Virus record (IMG/VR): IMGVR_UViG_2751185783_000001
Span: 1-64,000 of that record
DNA length: 64,000 bases
From: a virus
Lineage: Duplodnaviria; Caudoviricetes
Reading direction: 5' to 3' (one strand)
Below, one piece after another: positions 9,592-55,084 of this stretch (position 1 is its first letter; each line of letters begins with the position of its first letter). The position numbers and the translations under genes are program-made. The notes under the pieces were generated by a model that did not search any database, had not been told where the DNA came from, and saw nothing but the letters and a program-made list of their open reading frames with translations.

Positions 9592-10434
9592 TCACCCACG
9601 GCTGATTGCTGGAGCCAAGAGATCCAGACGTTCCTTTGCGACCAAGTAGGCAACGAGGCGTTCGCGGGCTTCGGGAGTGTCGTTGTGCCGGTGATTGAAC
9701 AAAGGCCTCTCCTGCAGGATGAAGTTACGTTCCATGGTCTCGACACTCTGTCGATCAGGGAACCTCTCAACGGAACAACGTGCAGCGAACGCCGACCACG
9801 AGGACTTTTTGGCGTGGGAGTACTGCCTGGATGCAACGTCATTGGTGATACCGATGTAGAGCAGGCGGTTATCAAGGTCGTACCAGCGGTAAAGCGCTTC
9901 CGGCCAAACCTCCTGACCCAGCCGGCGGCGAGACTTCGCAAAGTCATTGGCCAGGGCGGCCCACTGGGTGGAGCCGTAGGGGGCGGGGTCAATCTTCCAG
10001 AGCTTCTCGGCGAGACCAGAGCTGGCTAGCTCGCGTTCGCCGTAGACTTCGAAGGCGTTGATAATGGCATTCGGAGTCAACGCGGTGATCCTCTGCATAT
10101 CGATGCATTCGGCAACGGCGTTGAACAGGTGACGTGTGGGCCCGGACATGTGGACCGGGATAGTCATATCGGGCATCTCGGCGAAGACGGCCTTAAATTC
10201 GGAGACGTCCCAGGCGAAGGTGGCCAGCATTCGCCACTCGGCGTGGATCTGCGCCTCCTTAAGGCGCTCCAGGGTTCGACCCTTGCCCTCCCTGGAAGTA
10301 GGAGTGATGGAAGGGTCCGGCTCGCGAAAGGGCGCCAGGCGCAGTCGTGCAGCGTTGAGATCGTCAGGAAGTGGCATGACTGCTCCAAGGGGGTCCAAAT
10401 ATTGAAGTTCATAACGGCGGGCGTGGCGAATCAA
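9592..10434 (-). CDS. GIY-YIG nuclease domain protein (C-terminal domain)
   Basis: ALYRWY...LLYIGIT...R...H...E...I..E.PLFN; lower GC; start uncertain. Confidence 0.8.
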   Translation of the reverse strand: MIRHARRYELQYLDPLGAVMPLPDDLNAARLRLAPFREPDPSITPTSREGKGRTLERLKEAQIHAEWRMLATFAWDVSEFKAVFAEMPDMTIPVHMSGPTRHLFNAVAECIDMQRITALTPNAIINAFEVYGERELASSGLAEKLWKIDPAPYGSTQWAALANDFAKSRRRLGQEVWPEALYRWYDLDNRLLYIGITNDVASRQYSHAKKSSWSAFAARCSVERFPDRQSVETMERNFILQERPLFNHRHNDTPEARERLVAYLVAKERLDLLAPAISRG

Positions 10435-10445
10435 GGCATACGCCC

Positions 10446-10658
10446 CCTCCTCTAAAGAGGAGGAGGGGAGCGTGATTGCCTACCGCGTGATTGCCGTGAT
10501 TGCTGCCGTGATTGCCTGACCTGCACAAACACCTGTCAGCGTGATTGCCGTGAGTGGTCCGTGATTGCTCGCCCGTGTAAACCAGGCCGTGATTGCCTGA
10601 CCTGCGGAAACGCAAGATCGCGTGATTGGTGCGTGATTGCTCCCCACGCCCAATCACG
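10446..10658. repeat. Iteron-like array of CGTGATTG(C) (9 direct copies, 1 inverted) plus hairpin CCTCCTCT-AA-AGAGGAGG; putative origin
   Basis: Copies at 10471, 10486, 10495, 10507, 10540, 10560, 10588, 10621, 10632 and inverted at 10651; immediately downstream of the helicase gene. Confidence 0.8.
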
Positions 10659-12132
10659 CAGCCCCGGAGATCGACCGACGTACCACGAAGTACAGCTTCT
10701 GCGGGCGCCCACCGTTGACGTTCGGCTCCCCGTCGACGCTCACCAGCTCGCCGGTCCGGACATGGTTCTCCAGCTTCCGGCGCGCCCGTTCGATGTCGTT
10801 GCGTTCGGTCCGGCCGTACAGCTGCTTCGCGGCCTGATGCGGGCTCAGGCCGTTCGGGCAACGCGACGCCATGAGGACCACGTCGGTGGACGCGTCACCC
10901 CGGTCGACTTCCGATCGTCCGGCCAGGTGGTCGTGGATGATGGCGAGCGGACCGACATCGTTACGGGCCTGCTTGACGTGGAGGAGGTCCACGACCGGGT
11001 CACCGGCCTCGCCCCACAGAACGATGACCGATCCGGCGCCGGACGGAATCCAGGTGGAGCCGTACACGTCTGACAGGGAATTCGGTTTCTTGCCCTGCTC
11101 GCCGCCGGACTTGCGCTGGTGATGCAGTTCCAGCACCTGCACACCGGAGCGGATCGCAAGCTGTCGTGCCCGGTTGTAGCCCGCGCCGACCTCGTCCTTG
11201 GAGAGACCAACAGCGGCATCCTTAATTGAGTCGACCATGATGGTGTCCGCCCCGGCAGCCCGGCACATCTCCACCATCAGCGACGGGTTCGCGGCGAAGT
11301 CGGCCGGCGGCGGACCCTGCCAGACGATGAGGCGCTCTTCGAGTACCTGCCGCCACTCCGGCCGGACGATCCGGGCCAGCGACCGGGCGGCCTGCTGTGG
11401 CCGGTCCATCGCCAGGTACAGCACCCGGCCCTCGCCGGGGGTGACCGGCCAGCCCAGCACTTCGGGGATGAGACCGAGCCGGGCCATCACGAGCTGCCCA
11501 CCGATGGTCGTTTTGCCGACGCCCTGCGGCCCGCAGATCATGAGGGCTTCGCCGGACACCCACAGCACGTCGTCGCCGGAGCCCCAGATCACCGGGACCT
11601 TGTCGGGCATGTCGAAGATGAACGACGCGCCGTTGCTGAGCTGGGATTTCCAGCCTGCGCCGCCTTCGTCGGGGCTCGCGGCGAGTTGCTGTTGCATCTG
11701 GTCGTAGGCGCGGGCGATCACGGCCCGGTCTCCGGTGCGGGCGGCTTCGGCGACCAGGGCGGCGCTCTGTTCGGTGCGGCGGGCGAACGCGCGTTCCTTG
11801 ACCTGCCGGGCGTACCACGTTGCGCTGGCTACGGTCGGTACCGCCGCTTGGCAGGTGTGGAGGTAGGGCACGCCGCCGACGCGCTGCAAGTCGCCGATCT
11901 TGTCGAGGGTGATGGCGACGGCGAGGGGATCGGTGGGTTCGTTGATCGCGGCGTTCGCGGCGATCGTGGAGTAGATGACCCCGTGTGCGACCTTGTAGAA
12001 GTCGGATGCCTGGAGGATCGGCAGTACTTCGGCCACGGCGTCCGGGCTGACCATGAGCGCGCCGATGACGACCTGCTCGATCCGTTCGGTGCTGACCTTC
12101 GAGTCCCCAGCGGGCACCAGTTCCAGGGTCAT
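10654..12132 (-). CDS. DnaB N-terminal domain fused to an AAA_25/RepA-like helicase
   Basis: EQVVIGALM...DFY..AH..IY (DnaB-N); Walker A GPQGVGKT; Walker B IMVDS; LHHQRK. Confidence 0.85.
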   Translation of the reverse strand: MTLELVPAGDSKVSTERIEQVVIGALMVSPDAVAEVLPILQASDFYKVAHGVIYSTIAANAAINEPTDPLAVAITLDKIGDLQRVGGVPYLHTCQAAVPTVASATWYARQVKERAFARRTEQSAALVAEAARTGDRAVIARAYDQMQQQLAASPDEGGAGWKSQLSNGASFIFDMPDKVPVIWGSGDDVLWVSGEALMICGPQGVGKTTIGGQLVMARLGLIPEVLGWPVTPGEGRVLYLAMDRPQQAARSLARIVRPEWRQVLEERLIVWQGPPPADFAANPSLMVEMCRAAGADTIMVDSIKDAAVGLSKDEVGAGYNRARQLAIRSGVQVLELHHQRKSGGEQGKKPNSLSDVYGSTWIPSGAGSVIVLWGEAGDPVVDLLHVKQARNDVGPLAIIHDHLAGRSEVDRGDASTDVVLMASRCPNGLSPHQAAKQLYGRTERNDIERARRKLENHVRTGELVSVDGEPNVNGGRPQKLYFVVRRSISGAA

Positions 12133-12288
12133 GGGCAGCCGCCAGAAGTGATCTTTCCGGCTGCGCACCTGATTGAGGACAGCACTGCATTACCGTGTTG
12201 CACGGGCGGAGGTACCTCTCCGTCAAGGGCCCGGGGCACAGGAACGCCAATTCCTGCCGGGCCCGCTCTATGTGGCTGGCCGGTCGGC

Positions 12289-31351: not shown

Positions 31352-32659
31352 GTGAACAGCACGAACAGCAGCGCCGCGATACCCGGCCACGTCCTCAAAC
31401 GTGGCGACATGCGTGACGCTCTGGCCCGCCACGACTTCGGCCAGGTCTTCGCCCTGGCCCGGCAGTGGGGCGGCATCAGCTACTCCCGGATCGCCGCCGC
31501 ATGCCAGATCAAACCCGAACGGGTCGGCAGCCTTGCCCGCGGCATCGGGACGATCGCCTCCTACGAGAAGATCGCCGCGATCGCTGACGGCCTCGCCATC
31601 CCCGGGCACATGCTGGGCCTGACCCCGCGGCTCTGGGAAACCAGAACCGCAGGCGGAACGCCGGACAACCCCAGGGACGGAGACGGAACCATGCTGCGAC
31701 GAGACATCTTCAAAACGGCGGCGATCAGCGCCGGACTGGCCATCGGCCTGCCCCTCGGCGGCAGCATCCGCAAGGTCGACACCACCCGGCTAGGCCTGCT
31801 TCGGCAGCGCACCGCCACCCTGCGGCAACTCGACAACATCCTCGGCGGCGGCGACACCTTCCCCATCTACCTACGGGAATACCAGGCAACCCGGCGCATC
31901 ATTCGCGACGCCATCTACACCGACAGCATCGGCACCGACCTCGTCTCCCTGCTCGCCGAACAAGCCCAGCAGGCAGGATGGGCGGCATTCGACGCCGGGG
32001 ACCAGGACGTCGCCCGCCGGCTGTATGAGGAGAGCCAGGACGCCGCCCGCCAAGCCGGTGACAAACTCCTCGAAGGCAACGCATACGCGTTCCTCGCCTA
32101 CCAGCAGCTCGGCACCGACCTGCCGACCGCGGTGAAGAACGCCGACGCGTCGTGTGAGGCGGCCGGGGACACTGCGGTCGGGTCGGCCGGGGCTCTGCTC
32201 AACGAGCGCCGGGCGTGGGCGCACGCCCTTGCCGGGAACGCCAAGGAGACCGCCGCGGCCCTCGACCGGGCGCGGGAGGTCATCACCCAGGGCAACGACC
32301 GGCCGAACCCGGACTGGTCGGCGTGGGTCGACGACACCGAACTTCAGATCATGACCGGGCGTTGCTGGACCGAACTGAAACGGCCCCTGCGCGCGGTACC
32401 AGTCCTCAAAACGGTCCTCGCCGGGTTCGATGACACCTACGCCCGGGACAAGGCCCTCTACTCGACGTGGCTGGCCGCCTCATACTTCGACGCCGGCGAG
32501 ATCGAGGAATGTGCGGCAACCGCGGACCGGATCCTGGATCTGACGGCAGGAGTGGCGTCGGTGCGCCCACGACAGCAACTCGCCCCCGTGCTGATGAAGT
32601 TGCAGGACCACAAGGACCTGCCGGAGGTCGCCGCGGTACTGGAGAAGGCCCGAGGCTAA
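31352..32659 (+). CDS. XRE-HTH plus TPR-like regulator (actinomycete NsdA-like type)
   Basis: ALARHDFGQVF...GISYSRIA; LRQLDNILGGG; QQAGWAAFDAG; helical repeats. Confidence 0.8.
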   Translation: MNSTNSSAAIPGHVLKRGDMRDALARHDFGQVFALARQWGGISYSRIAAACQIKPERVGSLARGIGTIASYEKIAAIADGLAIPGHMLGLTPRLWETRTAGGTPDNPRDGDGTMLRRDIFKTAAISAGLAIGLPLGGSIRKVDTTRLGLLRQRTATLRQLDNILGGGDTFPIYLREYQATRRIIRDAIYTDSIGTDLVSLLAEQAQQAGWAAFDAGDQDVARRLYEESQDAARQAGDKLLEGNAYAFLAYQQLGTDLPTAVKNADASCEAAGDTAVGSAGALLNERRAWAHALAGNAKETAAALDRAREVITQGNDRPNPDWSAWVDDTELQIMTGRCWTELKRPLRAVPVLKTVLAGFDDTYARDKALYSTWLAASYFDAGEIEECAATADRILDLTAGVASVRPRQQLAPVLMKLQDHKDLPEVAAVLEKARG

Positions 32660-35423: not shown

Positions 35424-35876
35424 CTAGCCCCCCGTGCGCGCCTTACGCCGTGCAGCGAAGTCGGCCGCCTCAGCCTCGGTCGGTTTCGCCTGGCGTTCGA
35501 CGGGCCGGCGGAACCAGTCGTTGAGCCATGACCATTCGATGCGGGAATCGTCGGCGGCATTGCGGGCTAACTGCCAGGCGGTGGAGATCTGCACGAGGGA
35601 CAGCAGGTCGGCGTCACGCAGGTCCGCGTAACGGCTCAGGGCGTAGCCGATGTAGCCGAGTTGCCGGTTGTCGAGATCTTCGGGGGTCTCGTCCGGGCTG
35701 TCGTCGACGTGGACGCCGTCGGGGGTGGCGTACATCGGTTCGGCGAACAGGGGGCTTCCGGTGCCGGCCAGGTAGTGGCCTTGGGCGAAGAACAGCAGCA
35801 GGCGCAGGCGGGTGCCGGTCTGGTCGGGGCGGCGTTGCTCTATGGCGGTGATGACGGAGTTGACGCTCGTAGTCAT
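35424..35876 (-). CDS. Panacea/DUF4065 (SocA-like) antitoxin
   Basis: LRLLLFFAQGHYLAGTGSPLFAEPMYA..DGVHV...Y......L......TAW; TACGTT-N6-ATG. Confidence 0.75.
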   Translation of the reverse strand: MTTSVNSVITAIEQRRPDQTGTRLRLLLFFAQGHYLAGTGSPLFAEPMYATPDGVHVDDSPDETPEDLDNRQLGYIGYALSRYADLRDADLLSLVQISTAWQLARNAADDSRIEWSWLNDWFRRPVERQAKPTEAEAADFAARRKARTGG

Positions 35877-36129
35877 CGGCGCAACGTAGGACGGCCGGGA
35901 GATCAGTTGAAGACCCGGTTCCGGTGATGGATCTGGCACGCCCGGTAAGTCTGCGGCGGGCAGGGTGGTTGCCGTTGCCGGGGTCGCCGCTGAACTCGCC
36001 ACGTCACGAAACGTATCGATGCCGCTACTCAATGTGTGTCGGATCACGGACGCATCACGAAAGACCATCATCACTCCTTCTGCAAACTCGGTCGGAATAC
36101 CTCCACCAGAGAAACCGCCGTAAACCCGG

Positions 36130-37941
36130 TCACTTCGCATACACGTGACCCCAGTTGACGCCACGCCGCTCACCCAGGCCCGCCTCGATCTGCACCGGCA
36201 ACGAACCGCCTGCGGGCGCCCACGGGAAACTCAGCGCCGCCAACACGGTCTGCTCCACATCACCCGCGATACCAGCAGGAACGCTCAGGATCACCTCGTC
36301 ATGCACGACAGCCCGCAACATCGGCACCACCTCAACAGGCAGCCGCAGCAAGCCCTCCATCATGATGTCCCGCGCGCAGCCCTGACCCATCAGCGCCGGA
36401 GCCTGCGTCCACGCCCGGTCCGGGTCCACCCGCAGCGGCCGGCCGAACCCGTTGTCCAGCACCCGCCCCGCCTTGCCGTCCGCGCGGACCCGGTCCCGCC
36501 ACGCCACCAGCCCGGGGAACTGGGCACGCATCCCCGCGTCGAACTTGCGGGCCACCTGCTCCGACACCCCGGCGTTACGCACCAAACCGTTGATCGACAT
36601 GCCGTAGTTCCAGCCGTGCCCCAAAGCCTTCGCCTCATCACGGCGGCCCGGGTCACCCCAGACCCGGGTGGCCACCTCCCGGTGCAGGTCCAGGCCGGGC
36701 GCGAACATCGCCAGATACGCCGGGTCCTGCGACAGGGCCGCCAACGCCCGGGCGTCGACCTGCGACAGGTCCGCGGAGATCAGTACATGGCCGGGCTCCG
36801 ACAGGAACACCTCCCGCTCGGCGTACTTCCCGCCGCGTTTACCCATCACCGTCAGCCCGGGTTTCGTCGTCGACCAGCGCCCCGACGCCTGGAACATGCC
36901 GATCTCCGGATGCACCCGGTCACCGACGAGATACTGCTGCACCGTCTCGTAAACGGTCCGGACCCCGTTCAGCGACCCGACCAGGTCCACCAGGGCCATC
37001 ACGTCCGGACGGCCCGTGAACACGGCGGCCACCTCGGCGAGAGCGTCCTTACCGAACGACGGCTGCCCGTTCTCCGTGACCGGCAGCCGCACCCCCAGAT
37101 CGGCGAAGGCGCGCACGATCGCCGCCTTGCCTTCCGCGGTGGCGTGCGGTGACTTCGACACCCCGCCGCCCTTGCGCGCTGCGGGAAGCCCGTACCGGGC
37201 GGACAGGTCCGCGAGATGCCCGGCGCGGACGGCACGGTTCGCCGCCACCCGCCGCTCGAGTTCGGGCACATCGACCCGGAACCCGTTCATGCGGATCCGG
37301 GCGGCCACCGCGGCAACATGATGCTCCCGGCGAAGGTACGGCCCGGTCCGCAGTTGTCGTCCGAGCCGTGCGGTCAGGTCGACGTCACCGGCCAGGTAGC
37401 GCACGTACCGTTCGTCGTCCAGGGGGATCCGGTCGAAGCCGCCGTGCTGGCGGGCGAGGGCCTTCAGGTCGCCGGTCTTGGTGGCGCCGAGCAGGCGGTC
37501 GCCCATGCTGTCCAGGCTGTACTCGCGCAGGATCTGCGCCTGCTTCATGCCCGGCGCCGGCGGGTCGTTGAGGATCCCCGCCAACTTGGTGTCGAACACT
37601 CGGCCTGCGGCGGCCATGCCGAGCAGGTCGATGCTGTGGTGCAGGGCCATGGCGACCAGGTCGAAGGCGAGGACGTTGTGGCCGATGACCAGCCGTGCCC
37701 GACCGATGGCATCGGCAAGTTGGGCCGGGTCGTCGGTGATGGTGATCCGGTCGCCGGTCTGGTAGCCGCAGAGCCGGATGAACCCGGGCTGCCGGTGCCA
37801 CATCTGGTCTTCGCTGGCGGTCTCGATGTCGAGGGCGACCACACCGGGCGGCAGGGTGACGGCGCCGCGGGTGTTGAGGGTGCGGTGGTCGAGCCGGGGG
37901 TAGGGGACGTCGAACAGGGTGGGTTCTTCGACGGCTGTCAT
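36130..37941 (-). CDS. Family A DNA polymerase (3'-5' exonuclease plus polymerase, no 5'-3' exonuclease)
   Basis: ExoI LDIET, ExoII GHNVLAFD, ExoIII YLAGD; motif A ADLSQVDAR, motif B RDEAKALGHGWNYG, motif C VHDEV. Confidence 0.92.
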   Translation of the reverse strand: MTAVEEPTLFDVPYPRLDHRTLNTRGAVTLPPGVVALDIETASEDQMWHRQPGFIRLCGYQTGDRITITDDPAQLADAIGRARLVIGHNVLAFDLVAMALHHSIDLLGMAAAGRVFDTKLAGILNDPPAPGMKQAQILREYSLDSMGDRLLGATKTGDLKALARQHGGFDRIPLDDERYVRYLAGDVDLTARLGRQLRTGPYLRREHHVAAVAARIRMNGFRVDVPELERRVAANRAVRAGHLADLSARYGLPAARKGGGVSKSPHATAEGKAAIVRAFADLGVRLPVTENGQPSFGKDALAEVAAVFTGRPDVMALVDLVGSLNGVRTVYETVQQYLVGDRVHPEIGMFQASGRWSTTKPGLTVMGKRGGKYAEREVFLSEPGHVLISADLSQVDARALAALSQDPAYLAMFAPGLDLHREVATRVWGDPGRRDEAKALGHGWNYGMSINGLVRNAGVSEQVARKFDAGMRAQFPGLVAWRDRVRADGKAGRVLDNGFGRPLRVDPDRAWTQAPALMGQGCARDIMMEGLLRLPVEVVPMLRAVVHDEVILSVPAGIAGDVEQTVLAALSFPWAPAGGSLPVQIEAGLGERRGVNWGHVYAK

Positions 37942-38471
37942 CTGGGGCCGTGTCCCGGGTATGTCTGGCGGCAGTCGGTGCAGAGTCCGACGTCGAACCA
38001 CAGTAGGCCGAGGATCACCGAGGCGGTGTAGATCCCATCGTCTGTTGCCGGACCGGCGCAGACGTGGCCGCAGCCGTCGCAGGTTGCGCTCGCGATGGAG
38101 TTGCGCGGCGGGTACAGAAGCCCAGTGCAGGCGGCGCAAACGATCAGGCCCGGTTTCCAGGCGACCGCAAACACTGGTTTCGGGCTGTACGGCGAGGGGC
38201 TGTGGCGGCAGGTGGTGGCGGTATCGAGGAGCCACCAGACCAGGGCGTCGATCAGGGAGAGGCGGATCCAATCGGGGAGATCCTGGGGAGCCAGTGGGGT
38301 GAGCGGTGCGCCTTGCAGGGTTGAGGCGGCTTCGCCGAGTCGGCGAATTTCGTCGCCGGCGGCCTGCTGCTGGTCGGTGAACCAGGTCGGCAGGGCGTTG
38401 CGGGCCTCGGCGGCGAAGGCGGCGAGACGCGGATCGTTGAGCAGTTCATCGAAGATGACCGTGTAGTTCAT
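37938..38471 (-). CDS. Cys-rich (Zn-binding) hypothetical protein
   Basis: CxH, CxxC, CxxC, CxxC. Confidence 0.7.
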   Translation of the reverse strand: MNYTVIFDELLNDPRLAAFAAEARNALPTWFTDQQQAAGDEIRRLGEAASTLQGAPLTPLAPQDLPDWIRLSLIDALVWWLLDTATTCRHSPSPYSPKPVFAVAWKPGLIVCAACTGLLYPPRNSIASATCDGCGHVCAGPATDDGIYTASVILGLLWFDVGLCTDCRQTYPGHGPR

Positions 38472-38524
38472 GAGGACTCCTGCCGTCGTTTGGTACCTTT
38501 GCGGATTTTTTGATCAGTGGATCT

Positions 38525-38625
38525 CCCTGGACAGTTGGACAGTTGAAGTGCGTTTTGGAGGTCGGTCTATCGCACAGGTAAGAAGCTAGGGTCAAAAACG
38601 CTTTCAACTGTCCAACTGTCCAGGG
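38525..38625. repeat. Perfect 23-bp inverted repeat with internal GGACAGTT tandem units; putative origin
   Basis: CCCTGGACAGTTGGACAGTTGAA (38525-47) / TTCAACTGTCCAACTGTCCAGGG (38603-25), just downstream of the D5 helicase gene. Confidence 0.8.
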
Positions 38626-38630
38626 CAAGA

Positions 38631-40091
38631 TCACGGCGAGAGCGGCAGGAACCGGGTCTTCACGCACACATCCGTGTACCGGACCGTCCCGCTCTTCTCC
38701 TTCAAAAACCCGAGACGTTGCAGCTCAGAACCCAACTTCGTCTGCGTCACCGGCCGACCCCGCTGCCGGGTCACGTCCCACCACTTCGTGTACGACTCGA
38801 ACATCAGAGCCGCCGACACAGTCTCCCCGTCGACCCGCTCCAGCGCGTCCCCAGCAAACTGAGCCGCCGGAGATGCCTCGGACATGCCCGCCGCCGTCTG
38901 CCGCCGGATGGCCTCCGGCGCCTCCAACGGGCCCTTGCCTGTCCAGTGCTGAATGATCGCGTTCAGGAACCCGGACGTCTCCGCCTTCAGCTCGTCCTTG
39001 AACGACTCCCGCAGCTGGGTACGGTCGATCTCGTAATCCCAGGAGATCTCCACATACCGACGTTCCATACCGCCGTCCGCCGACCATGACGGCCGGTTGT
39101 TCGTGTCCATCTGGAACAGGATCTTCGGGGAGAACGTCACCGCTTCCTTGCCCATCGCCCGACCCTGCAACTGCCCACCACCGGTGATCTTCTTGAGCAT
39201 GCCCAGGTTGTAGGCCGCGCCCTCCTCCGGCTCGTCACAGAACACCAGCCGGGCACCCCGCATCGCCGCCAGCTCCGACCGGTACACCTCCCGGGCGTTC
39301 TTCGTACCCTTCAGAATCACCTCCACCGGCAGCTCCGTCGCATAGTCACCGGCCACCGCCGTCAACAGGCCCGCCATCGTGCTCTTGCCGTTCCCGCCCG
39401 CCGCGCCCCGGTTCACCACGAACTTCTCCATGCCCATGCCGGACAAGCCGCGCGCCCACATTTGAAGCTGGAACCGGCGTACGTCCTCGTCCGGCTGGTA
39501 GTCCTTGAACGCCTTGGCGACCTTCGGGGCTTCCTCATCCGGGTCGTACGCGCAAGCGGTCTTGGTGTTCATGTCCGTTGGCCGGGTGGCTCGGATCGAC
39601 GTCGCACCGTCAGGATGCAGCTCGATCATCCAGCCGTTGGCGGTCGGCAACAGCCACGGCGCCCCGTCGAGCGGCGGAGCGTCGAACGCAGACACTGGCG
39701 TGGCGACGCCCGGAGAACCCCGGGCGATCTTCATCGCCTGGTTCTGTTGGCTGCCACCGGAGAAACCGGTGAGTTCGACGCACTGCTCACGGCTGAGGCC
39801 CTTGGCGCTGTCGTCGAGCAATGCCCGCGTGTAGTCCTTGATCGTGGCCACCAACTCGGCCAGCACCGCCGGTTCCGCATCCGGCACCCACTTCGCGCCG
39901 TTGTGGTGCAGCCATCCCAACTCCCTGCACCACCGGAAACGGCCCTGCAAGCGGGGGATCAGTAACTCGGCGAGCTTGACCGCACCGAACGTCTCCACCG
40001 GGCGGGTGCACGATTCGCAGCCGGCACCCTTACCTTCGGCGCCGAGCGGTTCACCATGTTTGCAGGTGTAGTCGGCGCCGTACGGGATCAC
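38631..40091 (-). CDS. D5/P4-type SF3 helicase without a recognisable primase domain
   Basis: D5_N-like GWLHHNGAKW; Walker A GAAGGNGKST; LVFCDE; LKKITGG; TNNRP; C-terminal wHTH; short N-terminal CxH..CxxC. Confidence 0.88.
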   Translation of the reverse strand: MIPYGADYTCKHGEPLGAEGKGAGCESCTRPVETFGAVKLAELLIPRLQGRFRWCRELGWLHHNGAKWVPDAEPAVLAELVATIKDYTRALLDDSAKGLSREQCVELTGFSGGSQQNQAMKIARGSPGVATPVSAFDAPPLDGAPWLLPTANGWMIELHPDGATSIRATRPTDMNTKTACAYDPDEEAPKVAKAFKDYQPDEDVRRFQLQMWARGLSGMGMEKFVVNRGAAGGNGKSTMAGLLTAVAGDYATELPVEVILKGTKNAREVYRSELAAMRGARLVFCDEPEEGAAYNLGMLKKITGGGQLQGRAMGKEAVTFSPKILFQMDTNNRPSWSADGGMERRYVEISWDYEIDRTQLRESFKDELKAETSGFLNAIIQHWTGKGPLEAPEAIRRQTAAGMSEASPAAQFAGDALERVDGETVSAALMFESYTKWWDVTRQRGRPVTQTKLGSELQRLGFLKEKSGTVRYTDVCVKTRFLPLSP

Positions 40092-40534
40092 GCCGCCCAC
40101 CACAGGTCATCTTGCGGATCCTCATCCCAGGGCACCGGGCCGCCGGTGTACGCGCCGATCCGTGGGATGCGTGAGGCGGCGTCTGCGGCTTGCCGGCGGT
40201 TGAGCTTTTTGACCCCGCGCATGGTTGCTTCGGCGCTGAACGACCCGGTGTAGGTGTACATGGCGGCGATGTTCGCCAGCGCGTGTTCGTCACGCTGGCC
40301 GTCCTCGTAGCCCAGGTCGTAGCCCCAGCCCATGAAGATGCGGGTGAGCCAAGCGACCTGGTCGCGGTTGAAGGTCTCCTGGGTGAGGAGTGCGGCGGCA
40401 ACCCGTTCAGCTTTTGCTGCGGGGGTGTCCCCAGGTGGGTCTGTGTCGGTTACCGTCAAGGGAGTCTCCTGCGTAGTCGCGTACGTGGGCGTGACGAATC
40501 GGCCGGGGTGCTCGAACACCTCGGCCGTTGTCAT
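40088..40534 (-). CDS. Hypothetical protein
   Basis: Coupled between the XRE and helicase genes. Confidence 0.7.
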   Translation of the reverse strand: MTTAEVFEHPGRFVTPTYATTQETPLTVTDTDPPGDTPAAKAERVAAALLTQETFNRDQVAWLTRIFMGWGYDLGYEDGQRDEHALANIAAMYTYTGSFSAEATMRGVKKLNRRQAADAASRIPRIGAYTGGPVPWDEDPQDDLWWAA

Positions 40535-40809
40535 GTCTGGGTGTCGACGGGGATGTTGAACCCGACGGCCGAAGCGAGCCGCTCGAGCTGCTCGCGGTAG
40601 CGAATGGCGATCTCTGTACCGGGCTGCCCGCCACGTTCGTAGTAGGCGATTGATCCGTGGCTGACCCGAATCTCGCGGGCAAGGCGGCGAAGGCTGACGT
40701 TCGCGGCGTCCCTGATTGCGCGGCGGATATGGGGTGCGGGGAGCCGGGTGAGGGTGACTTCCTCGGCGAGGGTGAGCGCCCTGATGGGCGGAGTGATGGT
40801 GTCGGTCAT
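40531..40809 (-). CDS. XRE/Cro-like HTH regulator
   Basis: RRAIRDAANVSLRRLAREIRVSHGSIAYYERG; TACGAT-N7-ATG. Confidence 0.85.
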   Translation of the reverse strand: MTDTITPPIRALTLAEEVTLTRLPAPHIRRAIRDAANVSLRRLAREIRVSHGSIAYYERGGQPGTEIAIRYREQLERLASAVGFNIPVDTQT

Positions 40810-42683: not shown

Positions 42684-43555
42684 TCAACGGCCTCACCAAG
42701 ACGTTCACCGCCACCGTCGCCACCAACGGAGACCCCGCCACCGCCGCCCGGTCCGCCCTCGAAGCCGTCGACAACGACGCCACCCAGTGGACGTACAAGG
42801 AGCTGCGGTACGAGCTTGCGGATGCCGTCCGGCAGGAACTCGCGGAGAACCTGCGATGACCACCGTGTCCCGTGAGGTAGTCCGTAAGGTGCCTGCAACC
42901 GTTGTGACCAGGCGAAACACGAGCCTGAACGTGATCGACGGGCAGGCGCGGCCCACCCGCAAAGTCGCCGCCGAGGCGACCAAGTTCCTGGCCCTGCTGA
43001 TCCTCGCCCTGCTGTTCGCCGGCGGTTTTGCCGCGAGCCTCGGCTACCTCTGACCACCCCTCGAAAAGCCGTGCCGAGCACGCACAGAAAGGACCTCAGG
43101 CCATGACCAGCCCCCACCCCATGCCCGATGTGCGTGCATGCACGCACAAAGACAACACGCCTCCTGCCGGGCGTCCCACCAGGGAAAACGCGCCTGGCAG
43201 GCCCTCTCTGAGGGTCGTACCGGCTCCCACGCACATCGCGGAGACCCCGGAAACGGATCAGGACCCTACGGCCTTCTCCGAGCTGCGTACGTCCATCCGA
43301 TCCCACCGCGCCGCCGCCGAACACCCGCCCACCATCGCCGAAGCCGCAGCCACCTGGTGGCCCGACCGCGACCACACCCGCCACGGGATCGCCGGCCAAC
43401 TCGCCAGCGCCGCCGCCGGGCTCGTCCAGCTGATCGGCCTCGCCGCGACGTGGGCCACCGCCCACGTCTTCTTCGGCACCAAAACCCGGGCTGCGATCTT
43501 CGGCCTGCTGATGCTGCTGTCCCTGACCACCTGCACCGCGCTCGACCACCTCTAA
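42418..43555 (+). other. Small Spd-like genes (42418-42633 TM, 42635-42859, 42856-43053 TM, 43103-43555 TM)
   Basis: Coupled ORFs, mostly with hydrophobic segments, inside the transfer operon. Confidence 0.6.
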
Positions 43556-43574
43556 CCCCAGGAAGGGGAGCCCC

Positions 43575-44468
43575 ATGACCGAGTGGCTCAACGCCCACTA
43601 CCTGCAACTCGCCGCCATTGCCGTCGGGTTCCTGCTCCGCTGGGGAGCAGGGCAGTTCCTCGCCAACGCCACCAAGACCGGCAAAGGCGGGGCCCCTCGC
43701 AACGGCCAGGACGGCGGCGGAAAGAAGTCCCGCTGGGACAAGACCCGCATCACCAAGTTCGTTGCCCTCGCCTTCTACTTCGCGTCGGGCTGCCTGTTCG
43801 CGTTCGGCGCCTACCCGGCCGCACAGTGGGTCGTGTCCTGGGGTGGCGGGCTCGGCTCCTGGGTGTCCGTCATCTTCGGTGTTCTCACCCTCGCGGCGGG
43901 CTGGCACTCCCTGCACGGACTCGTCGGCCTCGTCCACGACATGACCGACGGCACCCCCGACGACGAAGCGTTCAAAGCCGCGTTCCTCGTCCCGACGACC
44001 ATCCCGCTCGGCTGGGCCGCCCTAGTCGGCCTGTTCACCAACCCGCGGGGTGCCGCAACCGGCGTGGCAGTGCTGGCCGTATCGGTGGTGACCGCCCTCT
44101 ACGCCCACAAGATCCTGAAGAAGACCCACGCCGCGCAGGGCCACTACAAGCTGTGGATGTGGTTCTCCACGATCATCTGCTGGTTCGTCGGGTTCGCCCA
44201 CATCCCCGCCCTCATCTACCTCAACGACTTCGCCGGCGCGCACCTGCCCGAAGGCGTCGCCTGGCTGTTGCGGATCGTCGTCGTCGCGTCCGGGGTGCTG
44301 TTCGCGATGGTCGGCCTCGGTGACGTGCTCCGTGACTGGACCCCGGAGAAGTGGTCGCAGTGGGCGGCCATGTACAGCACCCCGATCTTCTCGGTCCTCA
44401 GTGTCGCCGTGGCCATGGCCACGGCCAGCGCCGAAACCGGCCTGACCACGATCTTCGCGGCGTTCTGA
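43575..44468 (+). CDS. Polytopic membrane protein (Spd/Tra accessory)
   Basis: About 8 hydrophobic segments; internal duplication (HDMTDGTPD / GDVLRDWTPE). Confidence 0.75.
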   Translation: MTEWLNAHYLQLAAIAVGFLLRWGAGQFLANATKTGKGGAPRNGQDGGGKKSRWDKTRITKFVALAFYFASGCLFAFGAYPAAQWVVSWGGGLGSWVSVIFGVLTLAAGWHSLHGLVGLVHDMTDGTPDDEAFKAAFLVPTTIPLGWAALVGLFTNPRGAATGVAVLAVSVVTALYAHKILKKTHAAQGHYKLWMWFSTIICWFVGFAHIPALIYLNDFAGAHLPEGVAWLLRIVVVASGVLFAMVGLGDVLRDWTPEKWSQWAAMYSTPIFSVLSVAVAMATASAETGLTTIFAAF

Positions 44469-44577
44469 TGCACACCTACATGATCTCGTGGCTGTCGATC
44501 ACCGGAGACGGCCAGTTCAACCACGGCAACACCGACCGCCCGGTCGTCATGAGCTTTTCCCGTTCCGAGGAGGACCA

Positions 44578-45348
44578 ATGACCCCCACCCCGCCCGGCAA
44601 CACTGGGCGAACCACCGACGACACCAAAGCCGCCGCGTTCTTTACCGGCGCCCTCACCCTCGCCGCCGGCGGCGCAGGCCTGCTCGTCGCCGGGCTCGTC
44701 CTCGGCTTCGACTGGATGCTGCGCGGCGAACCCGCCGACCGGGAACACCTCGCCTCCCGCCGCCGCGCCGACGCCCGCGACCGCTACAACGACTCGTTCG
44801 CCTGGCTGGAAAACGACCGCGCCGAACAGGCCGCCTACCGGCGGGCCCGCCGGGACTGGTTCAACGCCGACCCGGAAACCCGCGGCAACAGCCCCACCAG
44901 CAGCGAAACGTTCGGGCACGTCATGGCCCGGCTGTGGCACCGGTCGGTCGTCGGCGCGAACCGGTTCCGGAAGGGCTGGGCGCACGGCCGGGAGTCCGCC
45001 GAACTGCGGCGCGCGGACGGCGACCCGAACTGGTGGAAACCCAACCTCAACCCGCACCGCATCCCGAACGACCCGTACCCCACCGGCTCGATGCCCGACG
45101 ACCCCGAACCGCAGCCCACCCCCACACCGGCACCCGATCCGAGCGCCGTCATCGACGCCGAGATCGTGCCCGACGTGCCACAGCCCGGCCCCCGCGACGT
45201 GGTGGTAGTCGGCGCCGACACCGACCCGCAGGCCCATTCCGGCGACGCCGCCCGCAACCAGGCCCTCGACAACCTGGCCGCCGAGGTCAACGGCAGCCGC
45301 CCCACTGGCCCCGCCGACCCGTCACCGCCACTGACCGTCATCCGCTGA
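44578..45348 (+). CDS. Membrane-anchored protein with Pro-rich tail
   Basis: N-terminal TM; RBS. Confidence 0.7.
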   Translation: MTPTPPGNTGRTTDDTKAAAFFTGALTLAAGGAGLLVAGLVLGFDWMLRGEPADREHLASRRRADARDRYNDSFAWLENDRAEQAAYRRARRDWFNADPETRGNSPTSSETFGHVMARLWHRSVVGANRFRKGWAHGRESAELRRADGDPNWWKPNLNPHRIPNDPYPTGSMPDDPEPQPTPTPAPDPSAVIDAEIVPDVPQPGPRDVVVVGADTDPQAHSGDAARNQALDNLAAEVNGSRPTGPADPSPPLTVIR

Positions 45349-45364
45349 CCCCCGGGAGAACACC

Positions 45365-45817
45365 ATGAGCACAGCAGTCAGCCCCACAACTGGCGGCAGC
45401 ATCACCCCCAACACCGCCGGACCCGGAACCGCCCTGGCCGCCCCCGGCGGCACCGGAGCAGCCGGCGCCGCCACCATGTCCATGGTCCGCATGACCGCCC
45501 TACTCGAGCAGGCACGCAAGGCCCTGCTGATCCTTCAGGACGTCGGCGTCGACCTGCTCCGCGAGTCCGCCGCCACCAAGGACACCGCCGACTACCTGAC
45601 CGCCTCGTTCGGCGAACGCATCTCCCTCGAGGAGATCGTCACGATCGCAACGATGCTCGGGCAGATCGCCGACGCCAGCCTGAACGTGGTCGCGCAGGGC
45701 CACGACTCGGTCCGGGCGGCGCTGGCCGCGAACTTCCAGGTCCTCGTTGTCCAGGAGCAGCTGCACGCTCTCGGCGCGGACGGCGGCTACGTCGACTCGC
45801 AGCGCCGCGCCGGATAA
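45365..45817 (+). CDS. Helical Tra-accessory protein
   Basis: Amphipathic helices; directly upstream of the translocase. Confidence 0.65.
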   Translation: MSTAVSPTTGGSITPNTAGPGTALAAPGGTGAAGAATMSMVRMTALLEQARKALLILQDVGVDLLRESAATKDTADYLTASFGERISLEEIVTIATMLGQIADASLNVVAQGHDSVRAALAANFQVLVVQEQLHALGADGGYVDSQRRAG

Positions 45818-45917
45818 ACCCGCCCCGCGCACTGCGGTGCCGCCCACGACCCTCACGGTCTGGGCGGTGCCGGATTACACGGGACACCCTACCGCCTGAT
45901 CTTTGGAGACGACCGCC

Positions 45918-48827
45918 ATGACCATGCCTGTAGCCCCGACCCGACCGCCCGCCCCGAAGGGTGCCCTGCCCGCCGGTATCGTGCTGTCCCGCTACTGGAG
46001 GGAATCACCCGGCGGGCCGTTGACCAAACACGACCACGACCGGCCGGTCGACGAGGACACCGACGAGCCGGTCGGACTGTGGTGGATGTGCCCCGCCGCC
46101 GCCACCTGCAAGACCGGCGAGTGGGTGTTCCGCACCGCCGAAGACAAGCCGGGCCGGCCGAAGAAGAAGTTCTGCGCCGAACACGGCACGGAACTGATGC
46201 CGGGCCGCGCCGAACCGGACGACGACAACCCGAAGCAGGCCGCCCGGAACTGGCTACAGCAGCGCCTGACCGAGAAGGCCACCGCCGCGAAGCAGGCCAC
46301 CCGTGACGCCGCCCAGCAGCGCATCGGCGCGCTCCGGGCGGCCGGACGAGACGAAGCGGACCGGCTGCGCCGGGACCTGCGCGAACACGTTCCGTCCGCC
46401 GCGGTGTCGTTCGGCGCGCTGGTTGCCGACTGGGCGCTGCTGTACGAACTCGACGCGCTGCCCACCTACGCCACCGGTGCGGGCCTGGCAGTCGGCGGGA
46501 CGCTGCTCGCCTACTGGGCGGTGTACGTCGGTGAGCTGGTGTGGGCCCGCCGGATGGGCTACACGATCCGGGAGTTGCCGGCGTCGGTGCGGTCCCGCGC
46601 GCGTTCCCGGGCGCGGTGGATCGCCGCGGGGGTTCTGTCGACGGGGGTGTGGCTGCTGATCGCGGAGACGATCGGCGCCGACCTGGGCAACGCGTGGGGT
46701 GTGGTGGCGAACATGATGGCCGCCGTGATGATCGGCGTCGTCAACTACAACCCGTGGCAGGCGATGGTCGAACGCCGCAAGGCCGAAGCCCGTGCCCGGG
46801 TGGAGGCCGCGGAGGAAGCGGCCCGGGCGGAGGAGGAACGCCTCACGGCCGAGGCTGCCGAACGAGACCGGCGCCGCATGGCCGCCGAAGAAGCCGCCCG
46901 TGTTGCGGAGGAAGCCGCCCAGACGGAGGCCCGCAAGATTGTGACCGTCACCGACGACACGGTCACCGCGGGCCGTAAGTTCGCCGAACGCTGGGAGAAG
47001 GTCGCCGCCGACGCGAAGGCCCGCAACATGGGCCCCGGCTTCGAGATCTGGCGCACCGCCGTGGTGCCGGAGCAGACCCGCAAGCTCACCGCCGTTGTCG
47101 GCGGCGAGACCGTGGTGATCGGCCACGAGTTCCTGATCCGTGCCGAACCCGGCGTGCTGGCCCCGCGAAACGGGATGAACGTGTCGCCGTTCTTGCAGAT
47201 GAAGACGTGGCTGTCGTCGATGCTCGAACTCGACGACGGCATGCTTGACCTTGCCTACCAGCCGAAGCGCCTCGACGACGGCAAGACCGACACCGAAGTG
47301 CTGATCAACCACGGGCTGGTGACCCTGTTCGACACCCACCCGCTCGGTGAGGCCGTCAAACACCCCGGCCCGTCGGGCGTGTACACCGACGCGAAGGGCG
47401 CCCGGTGGGGGTTCGCCGGCCGGGACCTGCGCGGCAACCCGGTCTACCGGAGCCGGTGGACGCCCGGGCAGGCCGGTGGTGGTGTGCGGGTGGGTGTGAC
47501 CGGCATGGGCAAGTCGGTGGTGACGCAGGTCGGCGCCTACAACGATCTGCTCCTCGGCATCCTGCCGATCATCCACGATGCGGGTAAGAACGCCATGGAC
47601 TTCGTGGACTTCTACGGCATCATCCCGGTGGGTCACACCATCGAACACCGGGAGATCATCCGGGAGTCGTTGTGGCACGAGATGAAACGACGCCAGGCGT
47701 GGATCAACACGCAGACCGCCGTCGGTCTGGGTGGCATGGAAGTCACCGCCGACCCCACCTGGGATCCGGTCCGTGGCGGCCCGCCGATCCGGTGCACGTG
47801 GGAGGAGTTCCACATGCACATGTCCGACCCGAAGTTCATTCAGTACCTCGGTGCGCAGGTCCGCCTTCAGCGGGCCACCGCCATCATGGCCGAAGGCGCC
47901 TCCCAGGGGTCGGGCCTGGCGGACTGGGGTGACCAGCAGATGAAAGAGCAGATGACCGAAATCTCGCTGGAGATGATGCGGGTCTCCGACCACACCGCGA
48001 GGCTCGCCGGCTACCAGGGCGGGCTGATGCCGTCCACGCTGCCGTCGCTGCCCGGCATGATGGTCAGCCAGGTACTGAAGGGAGATCCGGTCGCCTACCG
48101 GTCGGCGTTCATGCCCCGCGACCCGAGTAACCCCGAGTCGCTGATCTACCGGCTGAAGCGGCCCAACGGCACCCCCGAAGGCGAACAGATCGTGTTCGCC
48201 CCGCAGCTGCCGCCGGAGACCATCGCCGTGTTCAAGGAGCATGGACTGATGGACCTGTGGGAGAAAGGCAAGACCAAGTCTGGTCGAGAGCAGCTTCAGT
48301 CCGAAGCCGACCCGGTCGAGTCGACGGTCATGCCCGACATGCTCGAGGCGATCCTCGGCGGGCAGCCCACCCCGAAGCCGCGGCTGCGCGCCGATGAGGT
48401 CGTCTTGGGCCTGCTGAAGAACGAGGACGACAACGGGCGCGGCGGACTCACCCAGCAGCAGATGCTCGCGTCGCCGTGGTGGGCGCAGATCGAGGGGGAG
48501 TGGACGAAGAACGCCGGCATCCCCTCACACACCACGATCGGCCGGGCCTGCAAGAACCTGTCCGGGCTGGAATCCCCGCTGATCGGCTCCGACGAGGGGA
48601 CCCCCGCCCGCTGGTCGCTGCTGCCCGCAGGGTCGGCACGCGGGGAGCAGGCGTTGACGCTGCTGCGGTCAGCCGGCGTACTCGGCAAGCAGGCCCAATC
48701 CCAGACGCGGGCGTCTGGGATGGACATCGCAGGCCTGGAACGGCAGGCGATGCTCGAGGCCGAACAGGCAGCCCTGATTCAGGAACTGGTGCGGGAAGCT
48801 GCCGGGCTGACAGGACCGGGGCAGTGA
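45918..48827 (+). CDS. FtsK/SpoIIIE-family conjugative DNA translocase (TraB-like)
   Basis: N-terminal Cys/His cluster, TMs, coiled coil, Walker A GVTGMGKS, Walker B CTWEEFH, C-terminal wHTH. Confidence 0.8.
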   Translation: MTMPVAPTRPPAPKGALPAGIVLSRYWRESPGGPLTKHDHDRPVDEDTDEPVGLWWMCPAAATCKTGEWVFRTAEDKPGRPKKKFCAEHGTELMPGRAEPDDDNPKQAARNWLQQRLTEKATAAKQATRDAAQQRIGALRAAGRDEADRLRRDLREHVPSAAVSFGALVADWALLYELDALPTYATGAGLAVGGTLLAYWAVYVGELVWARRMGYTIRELPASVRSRARSRARWIAAGVLSTGVWLLIAETIGADLGNAWGVVANMMAAVMIGVVNYNPWQAMVERRKAEARARVEAAEEAARAEEERLTAEAAERDRRRMAAEEAARVAEEAAQTEARKIVTVTDDTVTAGRKFAERWEKVAADAKARNMGPGFEIWRTAVVPEQTRKLTAVVGGETVVIGHEFLIRAEPGVLAPRNGMNVSPFLQMKTWLSSMLELDDGMLDLAYQPKRLDDGKTDTEVLINHGLVTLFDTHPLGEAVKHPGPSGVYTDAKGARWGFAGRDLRGNPVYRSRWTPGQAGGGVRVGVTGMGKSVVTQVGAYNDLLLGILPIIHDAGKNAMDFVDFYGIIPVGHTIEHREIIRESLWHEMKRRQAWINTQTAVGLGGMEVTADPTWDPVRGGPPIRCTWEEFHMHMSDPKFIQYLGAQVRLQRATAIMAEGASQGSGLADWGDQQMKEQMTEISLEMMRVSDHTARLAGYQGGLMPSTLPSLPGMMVSQVLKGDPVAYRSAFMPRDPSNPESLIYRLKRPNGTPEGEQIVFAPQLPPETIAVFKEHGLMDLWEKGKTKSGREQLQSEADPVESTVMPDMLEAILGGQPTPKPRLRADEVVLGLLKNEDDNGRGGLTQQQMLASPWWAQIEGEWTKNAGIPSHTTIGRACKNLSGLESPLIGSDEGTPARWSLLPAGSARGEQALTLLRSAGVLGKQAQSQTRASGMDIAGLERQAMLEAEQAALIQELVREAAGLTGPGQ

Positions 48828-53857: not shown

Positions 53858-54646
53858 GTGAGTTCCCGCGAGGGAACCAACCGCAAGGTGGTGGAACACC
53901 AAGCGCACCGGGGCTGGACGCCTTACGAGGAGGCTTCCGATGGTTATTTTGTCATGCCCGCACTCTGTCCGCGTGCCTACGGGGGCAGCGGCGTGAAGCG
54001 GCTGTTCGACCTCGACAACGAAGAGATCCCGTTCATTCGGCGCTGGAACGCGCTCACCGCGGTTCTGCTGGTCGAGCCTTCCGTCAAGCTCGTCGCCCGC
54101 CTCGCCATGGACTTCGCCGACTTCGACGACGGCGCGTCGTGCTTCCCCAGCATCGAGATGATGACCCGCGAATCCGGGCTCAGTGACCGAACTGTCCGGA
54201 ATGGCTGGGCCGTTCTTCGGGGACTCGGCATGGCCGTCCGGGTGTCCCGGGGCGGCTCGTATCGCGGACATGCCGACGAGTACCAGTTGCAGATTCCCGA
54301 CAACTGGCGAACATTGCCCCTGCTCGGACCTCACCGCCGCAAGTTCACGTGCCCCGGCTGCGGGAACCTGTTCAACCCGGACGCCCACAGCATCCTCGCG
54401 GACAGGCTCAAGGGCAGCGCCAAGCCGGACGGCAGGCCGCGCGCGAAGGCGGGCGACGGCGTCGCGTGGATCATTGGGCGATTGGCGTTCTGCTCGTGGC
54501 CGAGCAGCACCGGCCGCAAGGGAAGCCGGGCCTGCACTGACGCGTGGGATGTGAAGCGCCGAGAGAAGGGCGAAAAGGTCTGGGATCAGACCGACGCCTC
54601 GGGGAAGTGGGCAGTGTTCTGGGAGGCGCAAGGTGATCCCTGGTAG
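53858..54646 (+). CDS. HTH_36-like (phage replication initiator-type) protein with CxxC
   Basis: A.FDDGASCFPSIEMMTRESGLSDRTVR.GW..L..LG; followed by iterons; start uncertain. Confidence 0.75.
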   Translation: MSSREGTNRKVVEHQAHRGWTPYEEASDGYFVMPALCPRAYGGSGVKRLFDLDNEEIPFIRRWNALTAVLLVEPSVKLVARLAMDFADFDDGASCFPSIEMMTRESGLSDRTVRNGWAVLRGLGMAVRVSRGGSYRGHADEYQLQIPDNWRTLPLLGPHRRKFTCPGCGNLFNPDAHSILADRLKGSAKPDGRPRAKAGDGVAWIIGRLAFCSWPSSTGRKGSRACTDAWDVKRREKGEKVWDQTDASGKWAVFWEAQGDPW

Positions 54647-54749: not shown

Positions 54750-55084
54750 GACCACCTACTCATAGACCAACTCATAAGACCAAATCATCAAACCGTGTCC
54801 CGCGCTGCGCTTCGCTTCGACGCGGGCGCGCACGACCGAAGGAGCGATGGGGGAACTGTCCGGGACAGTCCCGGACAGACTCAGGACAGGTGAGGCATCC
54901 AACCCAAACCCGCACCGGGAGTGAGCGATCCGACCGGCCCGTCGACTGCTTGCTCCCGGTGCGCCTTTGACCTTCAACCACGCACCGACGGAAGGTCAGC
55001 GTCCGGCTCGGCTGCCCGTCTACCTCCCGGCGGGCGGTGCGCAGTCTGCGAAGCCCGTGCGATGTCGGGTGCGAAGCTCGCCCG

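Follow-up and report, generated by a model that had tools for sequence, protein, structure and literature searches.

How does a replication module that encodes a DNA polymerase and a helicase, and in which no primase can be recognised, start DNA synthesis? The question is raised by a 64,000-nt stretch of a Caudoviricetes record (IMG/VR record IMGVR_UViG_2751185783_000001, positions 1–64,000; hereafter the window), which corresponds to positions 105881–169880 of contig C269 (237,090 bp) in an actinomycete genome of 10.3 Mb with 68% GC. A first-pass annotation had drawn attention to a family A DNA polymerase (PolA) in the window with two unusual residues in its nucleotide pocket, encoded beside a D5-type helicase and an inverted repeat, and had proposed that this polymerase might prime its own synthesis or use unusual primers. 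We found that the Asp/His pair in question is a coupled substitution marking a whole clade of PolA enzymes of actinobacterial phages and mobile elements, and that it probably does not license the enzyme to use ribonucleotides or to prime itself. On balance, we read the locus as a compact module for the replication of an integrated mobile element from an actinomycete, in which a Rep–ori unit in the style of SaPIs (pathogenicity islands of Staphylococcus aureus) and phage P4 is probably combined with a phage-type replicative, proofreading PolA and primed by the host. The module comprises the following features (window coordinates).

40531–40809, minus strand: helix-turn-helix (HTH) regulator of 92 aa, first gene of the replication operon (Pfam HTH_3 and HTH_31; 4-nt overlap with the start of p148)
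40088–40534, minus strand: p148, small protein whose gene shows translational coupling with that of the helicase (stop and start codons overlapping as GTGA)
38631–40091, minus strand: P4/D5-type superfamily 3 (SF3) putative initiator-helicase, 486 aa from the GTG at 40091, primase domain absent (D5_N and DUF5906, TIGR01613)
38525–38625, no strand assigned: predicted origin of replication, an inverted repeat with GGACAGTT iterons (architecture kept after the helicase stop in relatives)
37938–38471, minus strand: Zn177, Cys/His-rich protein with two predicted zinc sites (eight invariant Cys/His; AlphaFold2 (AF2) model)
36130–37941, minus strand: PolA, family A DNA polymerase with a 3'–5' exonuclease domain (Pfam, Klenow alignment, PHROG, homologue alignments)
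35424–36173, minus strand: p249, located 3' of PolA and syntenic in the closest relative with the same helicase–ori–PolA arrangement (locus L110; 66% identity over 178 aa to the open reading frame (ORF) after PolA there; no Pfam match)

A proofreading family A polymerase with Asp and His in the nucleotide pocket

The PolA gene encodes 603 aa from an ATG at position 37941, which overlaps the stop codon of the Zn177 gene as ATGA; a 713-aa version of the ORF starting at a TTG and reaching 38271 extends upstream into the territory of another gene, and was set aside as an ORF-listing artefact. The protein scored 97.6 bits against the Pfam polymerase domain DNA_pol_A (PF00476, cut-off 34.3) and 22.4 bits against the exonuclease domain (PF01612), just below the cut-off of 23.6. 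In a HMMER search against the PDB, residues 18–554 aligned with the Klenow fragment (E = 1e-24), pairing 'adlsqvdar' of PolA with 'adysqielr' and 'akalghgwnygms' with 'akainfgliygms'. This alignment therefore places Asp396 at the steric-gate position E710 and His442 at the position of F762, just as motif A (DLSQVDAR) and motif B (KALGHGWNYG) had been read in the first-pass annotation. The exonuclease motifs, described there as intact, likewise align with those of Klenow (D38-x-E40, N89/D94 and Y182/D186), and together with the O-helix residues they are invariant or nearly so in homologue alignment A1. PolA also keeps the catalytic residues D391 and H547-D548-E549, as well as R434, K438 and Y446 of the O-helix, all of which are invariant across the PolA clade in the homologue alignments.

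PolA thus has the polymerase domain, motif A Asp, motif C HDE and O-helix R/K/Y of a family A DNA polymerase, and the Exo I, II and III acidic residues of a proofreading enzyme. In place of the canonical nucleotide pocket (Glu at E710, and Phe, Tyr or Leu at 762, also termed B3), it carries Asp396 and His442. It is not an orthologue of bacterial DNA polymerase I, scoring 92 and 73 bits against PRK05755 and TIGR00593 (cut-offs 720 and 600, respectively); the 603-aa protein begins at the exonuclease domain and lacks the 5'-nuclease of that enzyme. We also ruled out divPolA1 (Virol J 2024;21:200), a second polymerase beside a regular one, with a truncated thumb and an inactivated exonuclease, given the extent of the Klenow alignment and the intact exonuclease motifs. 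BFK20, followed as a lead, proved unrelated to the window PolA.

The Asp/His pair is a clade signature

We aligned the 120 best database homologues of PolA together with five phage proteins (n = 125). Asp occupied the 710 column in 123 of the 125 sequences and His the 762 column in 123 of 125, the two exceptions being the outgroup proteins D29 gp44 and Bxb1 gp41, which read Glu and Phe. Among 80 loci sampled from one-genome-per-species contigs, 38 carried Asp with His (D+H) and 39 Glu with Phe (E+F), with one locus each for D+L, E+Y and E+K, the last probably an alignment slip. Neither of the mixed combinations D+F and E+H occurred among these loci, and all matches above about 31% identity were D+H. 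The sole Asp+Leu exception to the D+H/E+F rule is a long-branch PolA from an Actinomyces metagenome-assembled genome (L055:1824-3755). In a FastTree phylogeny of 95 polymerase domains, which gives local support values only and in which several long branches were flagged, the difference between D+H and E+F amounted to one change.

Leu in place of Tyr at motif A position 2, and Asn ahead of the invariant motif B Tyr, are further marks of the clade. Its members include prophages and elements of Nocardioides, Arthrobacter, Gordonia, Microbacterium, Streptomyces, Corynebacterium and Amycolatopsis, the cultured Actinoplanes phage phiAsp2, the cultured Streptomyces phages Asis, Mischief19 and Satis, and the M. 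abscessus prophage prophiBWHA-1. A D/H subclade of the M. abscessus prophage type (L054, L056, L057, L062, L064, L065 and L005:8031-9815, the last being prophiBWHA-1 gp7) reads D(L/M/Y)SNADAR and KP(L/M)GHGW(S/G)YG, and has HDA instead of HDE in motif C. About 1,700 phage records match this PolA. The PolA relatives recovered by a family-level genome search, in 6 of 400 genomes, were all distant and did not help with synteny.

Two PolA surveys describe only Phe, Tyr or Leu at motif B position 762 (PMC10201439, PMC6302109), the same three residues being the only ones listed at position B3 across 19 PolA clusters (PMC10201439). The D/H clade, which is large and monophyletic, therefore offers a natural experiment on sugar selection by family A enzymes, and is a possible source of enzymes with different nucleotide-analogue handling. 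A literature text search for His762, H762 or E710D in PolA returned nothing relevant, and the signature seems to be undescribed, though the genes that encode it routinely carry the label DNA polymerase I.

Most D/H loci carry a primase-helicase gene of ~780 aa directly upstream of PolA, labelled 'DNA primase' in phage annotations, or have both genes fused. The primase domain differs between loci, being DUF3854, Prim-Pol, or zf-CHC2 with Toprim_2, always followed by D5_N and DUF5906; we take DUF3854 to be Toprim-like. Primase–helicase–PolA fusions of 1445–1538 aa were found at L027, L028, L035, L043 and L051, and a fusion of this kind is also seen in Pas55 of phiAsp2, which has been cited as a helicase–primase–PolA triple fusion (Kazlauskas et al., PMC4889955). 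Asp and His are kept while primase types are swapped or fused, and the pair therefore does not signal self-priming. Of the two points that the first-pass annotation had put up for checking, phylogeny and gene neighbourhoods bore out conservation of the pair and went against its linkage to primase-less D5 helicases. The proposed tie between Asp/His and self-priming or unusual primers is unsupported: the pair is invariant in a clade most of whose members, cultured phages included, are fused to or preceded by a primase-helicase of the Toprim or archaeo-eukaryotic primase (AEP) type. Most probably, Asp and His form an alternative sugar pocket that would still select deoxyribonucleotides, with a shorter acid and an imidazole in place of Glu and Phe.

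The helicase gene is followed by a predicted origin

Pfam domains D5_N (residues 45–197) and DUF5906 (233–349) were found in the helicase, along with a match to the NCBIfam model TIGR01613, 'P4 family primase C-terminal', whose cut-off of 108.7 was passed with a score of 115, and the Walker A (GGNGKST) and Walker B (VFCDE) motifs can be read in its translation. Of PHROG 1156, 'DNA primase', only profile positions 372–811 of 855 were matched, so the protein is the helicase half of a primase-helicase. It has the D5_N and SF3 helicase domains of the P4/D5 family and no N-terminal DnaG-type or AEP primase domain; with D5_N beginning at residue 45, there is no Prim-Pol or Toprim domain, in agreement with the first-pass annotation. 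Among 30 proteins at least 44% identical to the helicase, 26 are short forms of 469–557 aa. The four long forms are P0136 and P0137 (685 aa, 75–77% identical), in whose sequences a CHC2-type zinc finger can be read at the N terminus and which match Toprim_3 faintly, P0149 (821 aa), with a Prim-Pol domain, and P0157 (845 aa), with an unassigned extension.

Directly 3' of the helicase stop lies an inverted repeat with two 23-nt arms (38525–38547 and 38603–38625) that are 100% complementary and separated by a 55-nt spacer. Its folding z-score was −7.7, with none of 200 shuffled sequences folding as well, and as a 16-mer pair it is unique in the window. Each arm holds two tandem GGACAGTT iterons, and there is an inner CGTTTT/AAAACG repeat and an AT-richer centre. 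Exact GGACAGTT units occur six times in the window against 1.5 expected, four of them in the predicted origin; the other two are at 54190–54197 and 54854–54861. The same architecture was seen directly 3' of the helicase stop in all seven loci with DNA (the window, L110, L112, L113, L114, L115 and L116), with two tandem 8–9-nt units per arm, a 55–68-nt spacer, an inner CGTTT/AAACG-type repeat and an AT-richer middle. Across these loci, the iteron sequence co-varies with helicase relatedness (identity to the window protein in brackets).

GGACAGTT: window (100%), L110 (84%), L113 (75%)
GTGTGGTGG: L116 (62%), L112 (54%)
GGTGGTGA: L114 (56%)
GATGAAGG: L115 (44%)

In SaPI replicons, the ori lies directly 3' of rep; an AT-rich region is flanked on either side by two or more iterons, those on one side being oriented opposite to those on the other, and they are recognised by the C-terminal winged helix of Rep, a self-loading SF3 helicase (PMC9371898). 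All seven loci have the ori 3' of the helicase gene, at least two iterons per side, the two sides in opposite orientation, and an AT-richer centre; the primase (Pri) found upstream of or fused to Rep in SaPIs has no recognised counterpart here, p148 giving no primase match. From conservation at seven loci and the match to the SaPI arrangement, we read 38525–38625 as very probably the origin, as the first-pass annotation had proposed, and the helicase as its presumed initiator. Binding of the helicase to the iterons would be in keeping with the parallel between iteron sequence and helicase identity. Comparison across this helicase family defines origins cleanly in Actinobacteria, an aid in designing Streptomyces vectors and in recognising the replication modules of prophages and integrative elements.

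Source of the primers

We searched the whole genome in six frames with hidden Markov models (HMMs) of eight primase families: Prim-Pol (PF09250), Toprim_2 (PF13155), DUF3854 (PF12965), zf-CHC2 (PF01807), Toprim_3 (PF13362), Toprim_4 (PF13662), the DnaG core (PF08275) and the AEP small subunit (PF01896). None matched at E ≤ 1 anywhere on the 237-kb contig C269, so the lack of a recognisable primase, reported in the first-pass annotation for the window, extends to the entire contig. The same searches located the host DnaG on contig C157, plus several elements elsewhere in the genome. The N-terminal primase parts of the long-form helicase relatives gave no tblastn match in the genome.

In the 13.4 kb examined of a small prophage (L116), a short-form helicase was the sole replication gene to be recognised; it adjoins terminase, portal, protease and capsid genes, and no PolA or primase was seen there. 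Rep–ori units of this helicase family are evidently able to rely on the host replisome. With short forms making up 26 of the 30 helicase relatives, one of them on its own in this prophage, and a DnaG encoded by the host, the most economical source of primers, and we infer the likeliest, is thus host DnaG. In such a scheme, helicase hexamers would load onto both iteron arms and open the AT-richer centre, and PolA would extend primers not made by the element. These would come from host DnaG, possibly with an RNA-polymerase transcript serving as the first primer on the leading strand, a variant of host priming. As 98% of polymerase-encoding double-stranded DNA (dsDNA) viruses also encode a primase (PMC4889955), a module with a polymerase, a helicase and no recognisable primase belongs to the rare remaining 2% of polymerase-encoding elements, and is a good test case for the borrowing of host priming.

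Small proteins of the module

Zn177 (177 aa) has eight invariant Cys/His residues in its family alignment, and its AF2 model (predicted local distance difference test score, pLDDT, 87.2) consists of four helices followed by strand-rich zinc ribbons. Compared with PDB folds, the model gave nothing at E ≤ 1 in Foldseek and a best Z of 2.8 in VIA-align (48,161 chains). The family comprises 737 representative clusters (relatives P0187–P0335) and is found near actinophage replication genes; a protein atlas returned only unnamed actinobacterial and phage clusters, and ten longer members gave a single weak STAND/AAA match in Pfam. One homologue follows a D5–ori unit without PolA (L112), another lies ahead of a DnaC/DnaB module (L109), and the protein is absent from L110. 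Judging from these contexts, Zn177 is probably replication-associated and not a PolA-specific partner, and the accessory role offered for it in the first-pass annotation is not supported. The idea that it is a primase, or a partner resembling the MP protein of the staphylococcal CCPol system (see below), was dropped, its model matching no solved fold and the atlas giving only unnamed clusters.

The N-terminal 78 aa of p148 are 55% identical to a 102-aa gene product encoded upstream of the helicase in L110, and the protein had no match in Pfam, PHROG or NCBIfam. Its AF2 model is all-helical with a pLDDT of 48.6, and the atlas model is also of low confidence. Of the two neighbours of the helicase, Zn177 thus gave a confident model with no PDB fold match, and p148 a model of low confidence and no primase match in the three family databases. 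As a candidate hidden AEP, p249 was dropped; its sequence resembles Panacea/DUF4065 by eye.

Mobility of the polymerase gene and its genomic setting

In the closest relatives of PolA (69–78% identity; L107, L108 and the contigs of P0006 and P0008), the polymerase gene directly follows a TraB-like gene of ~975 aa, the two overlapping by 4 nt in L107, with no D5 helicase nearby. The TraB-like gene and its four upstream neighbours are conserved in the window at 43028–48827 (plus strand), opposite in strand to PolA; this five-gene block, with products of 175, 297, 286, 150 and 974 aa, is also found at L107:3448-9267 and L108:2677-8338. Only L110 repeats the window order of p148-like gene, helicase, ori, PolA and p249, with identities of 84% and 72% over the D5–ori–PolA–p249 part, which points to a maintained D5–ori–PolA unit. 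From the differing contexts, PolA has therefore moved between a transfer-type block and a Rep–ori unit.

The ORFs around the replication module are mostly small and unannotated, and neither Pfam nor PHROG gave a match for the majority of ORFs in the window. Among those around the module are tail-like genes, regulators, a DnaB-type helicase and a TraB-like membrane ATPase, and the stretch therefore sits in an integrated mobile element (prophage and/or conjugative element). The sole tyrosine-integrase match on C269 lies 47 kb beyond the end of the window. Two further genes of the window are as follows.

45903–48827, plus strand: 974-aa membrane-anchored P-loop protein, TraB/FtsK-like by motifs only (no sequence match in Pfam, PHROG, NCBIfam or PDB)
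10654–12168, minus strand: DnaB-type helicase belonging to a second replication module at a distance of 24 kb (Pfam DnaB and AAA_25; phrog_6012, E = 5e-114)

Transmembrane segments and a Walker A motif suggest that the 974-aa protein is a TraB/FtsK-like translocase; the possibility of a primase or helicase was set aside, no database model having matched. The second replication module likewise has no recognisable primase, and a GIY-YIG nuclease gene (9592–10434, minus strand) adjoins its DnaB-type helicase. An NsdA-family tetratricopeptide repeat (TPR)-like regulator (31352–32659, plus strand; NCBIfam NF053720, 236 bits against a cut-off of 75) sits between the replication module of interest and a left-hand block of small genes. 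ARAGORN predicted an unusually long tRNA-Arg(tcg) of 99 nt at window positions 2167–2265 (C269 108047–108145).

Weighing the alternatives

Several considerations weigh against a host-primed Rep–ori–PolA module. In the biochemistry of the Klenow and Taq enzymes, E710 and F762 both touch the nucleotide sugar, which leaves room for altered selectivity in PolA. The closest PolA relatives follow a TraB-like gene, and the partnership of PolA with the helicase is therefore recent and may not be a functional coupling. The 98% rule for dsDNA viruses makes a missed divergent primase a real possibility, and dozens of ORFs of the element have no family match. If the element did encode a primase that has diverged beyond the reach of current models, whether in p148, in Zn177 or in some other unannotated ORF, its replicon would be conventional. 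We consider this unlikely, though it is the leading rival to host priming. It would accord with the rarity of primase-less, polymerase-encoding viruses, with the many window ORFs lacking a match, and with the small gene coupled upstream of the helicase in several relatives, the position held by Pri in SaPIs (PMC9371898); it sits poorly with eight HMM families unmatched over 237 kb and with long-form primase parts that have no tblastn match in the genome. The Zn177 model, a helical bundle with zinc ribbons, matches no solved fold, and p148 is predicted, at low confidence, to be all-helical, whereas AEP and Toprim folds are alpha/beta. A short-form helicase is found, moreover, without any other recognised replication gene in ~13 kb of a small prophage. 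That PolA is instead a travelling accessory for gap filling, repair or establishment after transfer, recombined beside the helicase while the host replisome replicates the element, appears quite unlikely. Its coupling to a TraB-like gene away from any D5 helicase, and the existence of Rep–ori units of this family without PolA, would suit such a role, but the wider D/H clade shows tight linkage or fusion of PolA with a replicative primase-helicase, and L110 preserves the D5–ori–PolA–p249 order.

Two further readings give the polymerase itself a part in initiation. One holds that an Asp/His polymerase with relaxed sugar discrimination starts synthesis at the origin by itself, alone or with the zinc protein, as CCPol-MP does in SCCmec (staphylococcal cassette chromosome mec). 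Both changed residues touch the nucleotide sugar, and the window has the order helicase, small protein, PolA, with no primase found. There is also a precedent in a family A-like polymerase that primes with a small partner beside an SF3 helicase (PMC7581432). However, no family A-type enzyme other than CCPol is known to prime, and CCPol has the canonical Glu and Phe (PMC7581432), so Asp/His is not the priming determinant in CCPol, and the pair is invariant in PolAs fused to primases. The exonuclease of the window PolA is complete and intact, unlike that of CCPol; MP is a five-stranded beta-barrel (PMC10201439), which the Zn177 model is not; and Zn177 is absent in L110 and present without PolA in L112 and L109. 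We therefore regard self-starting of this kind as highly improbable. The other reading, that the Rep–ori–PolA lineage is truly primase-less and makes an unconventional start with its Asp/His polymerase, for example by extending an R-loop or an RNA-polymerase transcript at the hairpin of the origin, or by de novo initiation together with a small partner, strikes us as distinctly unlikely; were it true, the clade-wide Asp/His pair would amount to an alternative sugar gate found in nature, one that handles ribo- or dideoxynucleotides differently. The host-primed module remains the reading we find reasonably probable.

Comparison with known systems

The module has partial counterparts in several known systems. 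With SaPI Pri–Rep–ori (PMC9371898) it shares a presumed self-loading SF3 initiator-helicase with an ori 3' of its gene, two or more iterons per side in opposite orientations around an AT-richer centre, and iteron specificity that varies among relatives. The S. aureus islands belong to a different phylum, and the likeness is one of architecture, with no close sequence relationship shown; iterons are 5–6 nt in SaPIs and 8–9 nt in the window family. SaPIs also have a primase, which is either fused to Rep or encoded upstream of it, and they lack a DNA polymerase, whereas the window has PolA and no recognised primase. The D5_N and SF3 helicase core is common to the window helicase and the phage P4 gp-alpha/poxvirus D5 family, and the window protein weakly matches the helicase part of C962R of African swine fever virus (ASFV); unlike gp-alpha and D5, it has no N-terminal DnaG-type or AEP primase domain.

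CCPol-MP-Cch2 of SCCmec (PMC7581432) resembles the window in that one mobile-element operon, without a classical primase, encodes a family A-type polymerase together with a small protein and an SF3 helicase. Its polymerase lacks most of the exonuclease domain and has Glu710 and Phe762, whereas the window PolA has a complete exonuclease with Asp and His. Its partner MP is a beta-barrel, and the small protein of the window is an unrelated zinc protein that is not consistently present; PolA and Zn177 are thus not the exonuclease-truncated, PolA-like enzyme and beta-barrel partner that define that system.

The PolA enzymes of phiAsp2 (Pas55), Asis, Mischief19 (Woodruffvirus) and Satis belong to the same clade as the window PolA (33–41% identity), and share with it DLxQVDxR and KxxxH(G/A)xNYG, Asp at 710, His at 762 and an intact exonuclease domain. 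Their polymerase is either fused to a Toprim-type primase and a D5/SF3 helicase, as in Pas55 (1415 aa), or has such a primase-helicase directly ahead of it; the window helicase has no primase domain and is separated from PolA by the origin and the Zn177 gene. The D29-like PolA cluster 9 (Czernecki et al. 2023, PMC10201439) likewise consists of ~600-aa actinophage replicative PolAs with an active exonuclease, but D29 gp44 and Bxb1 gp41 keep Glu and Phe, and stand on the other side of the single split between D/H and E/F enzymes.

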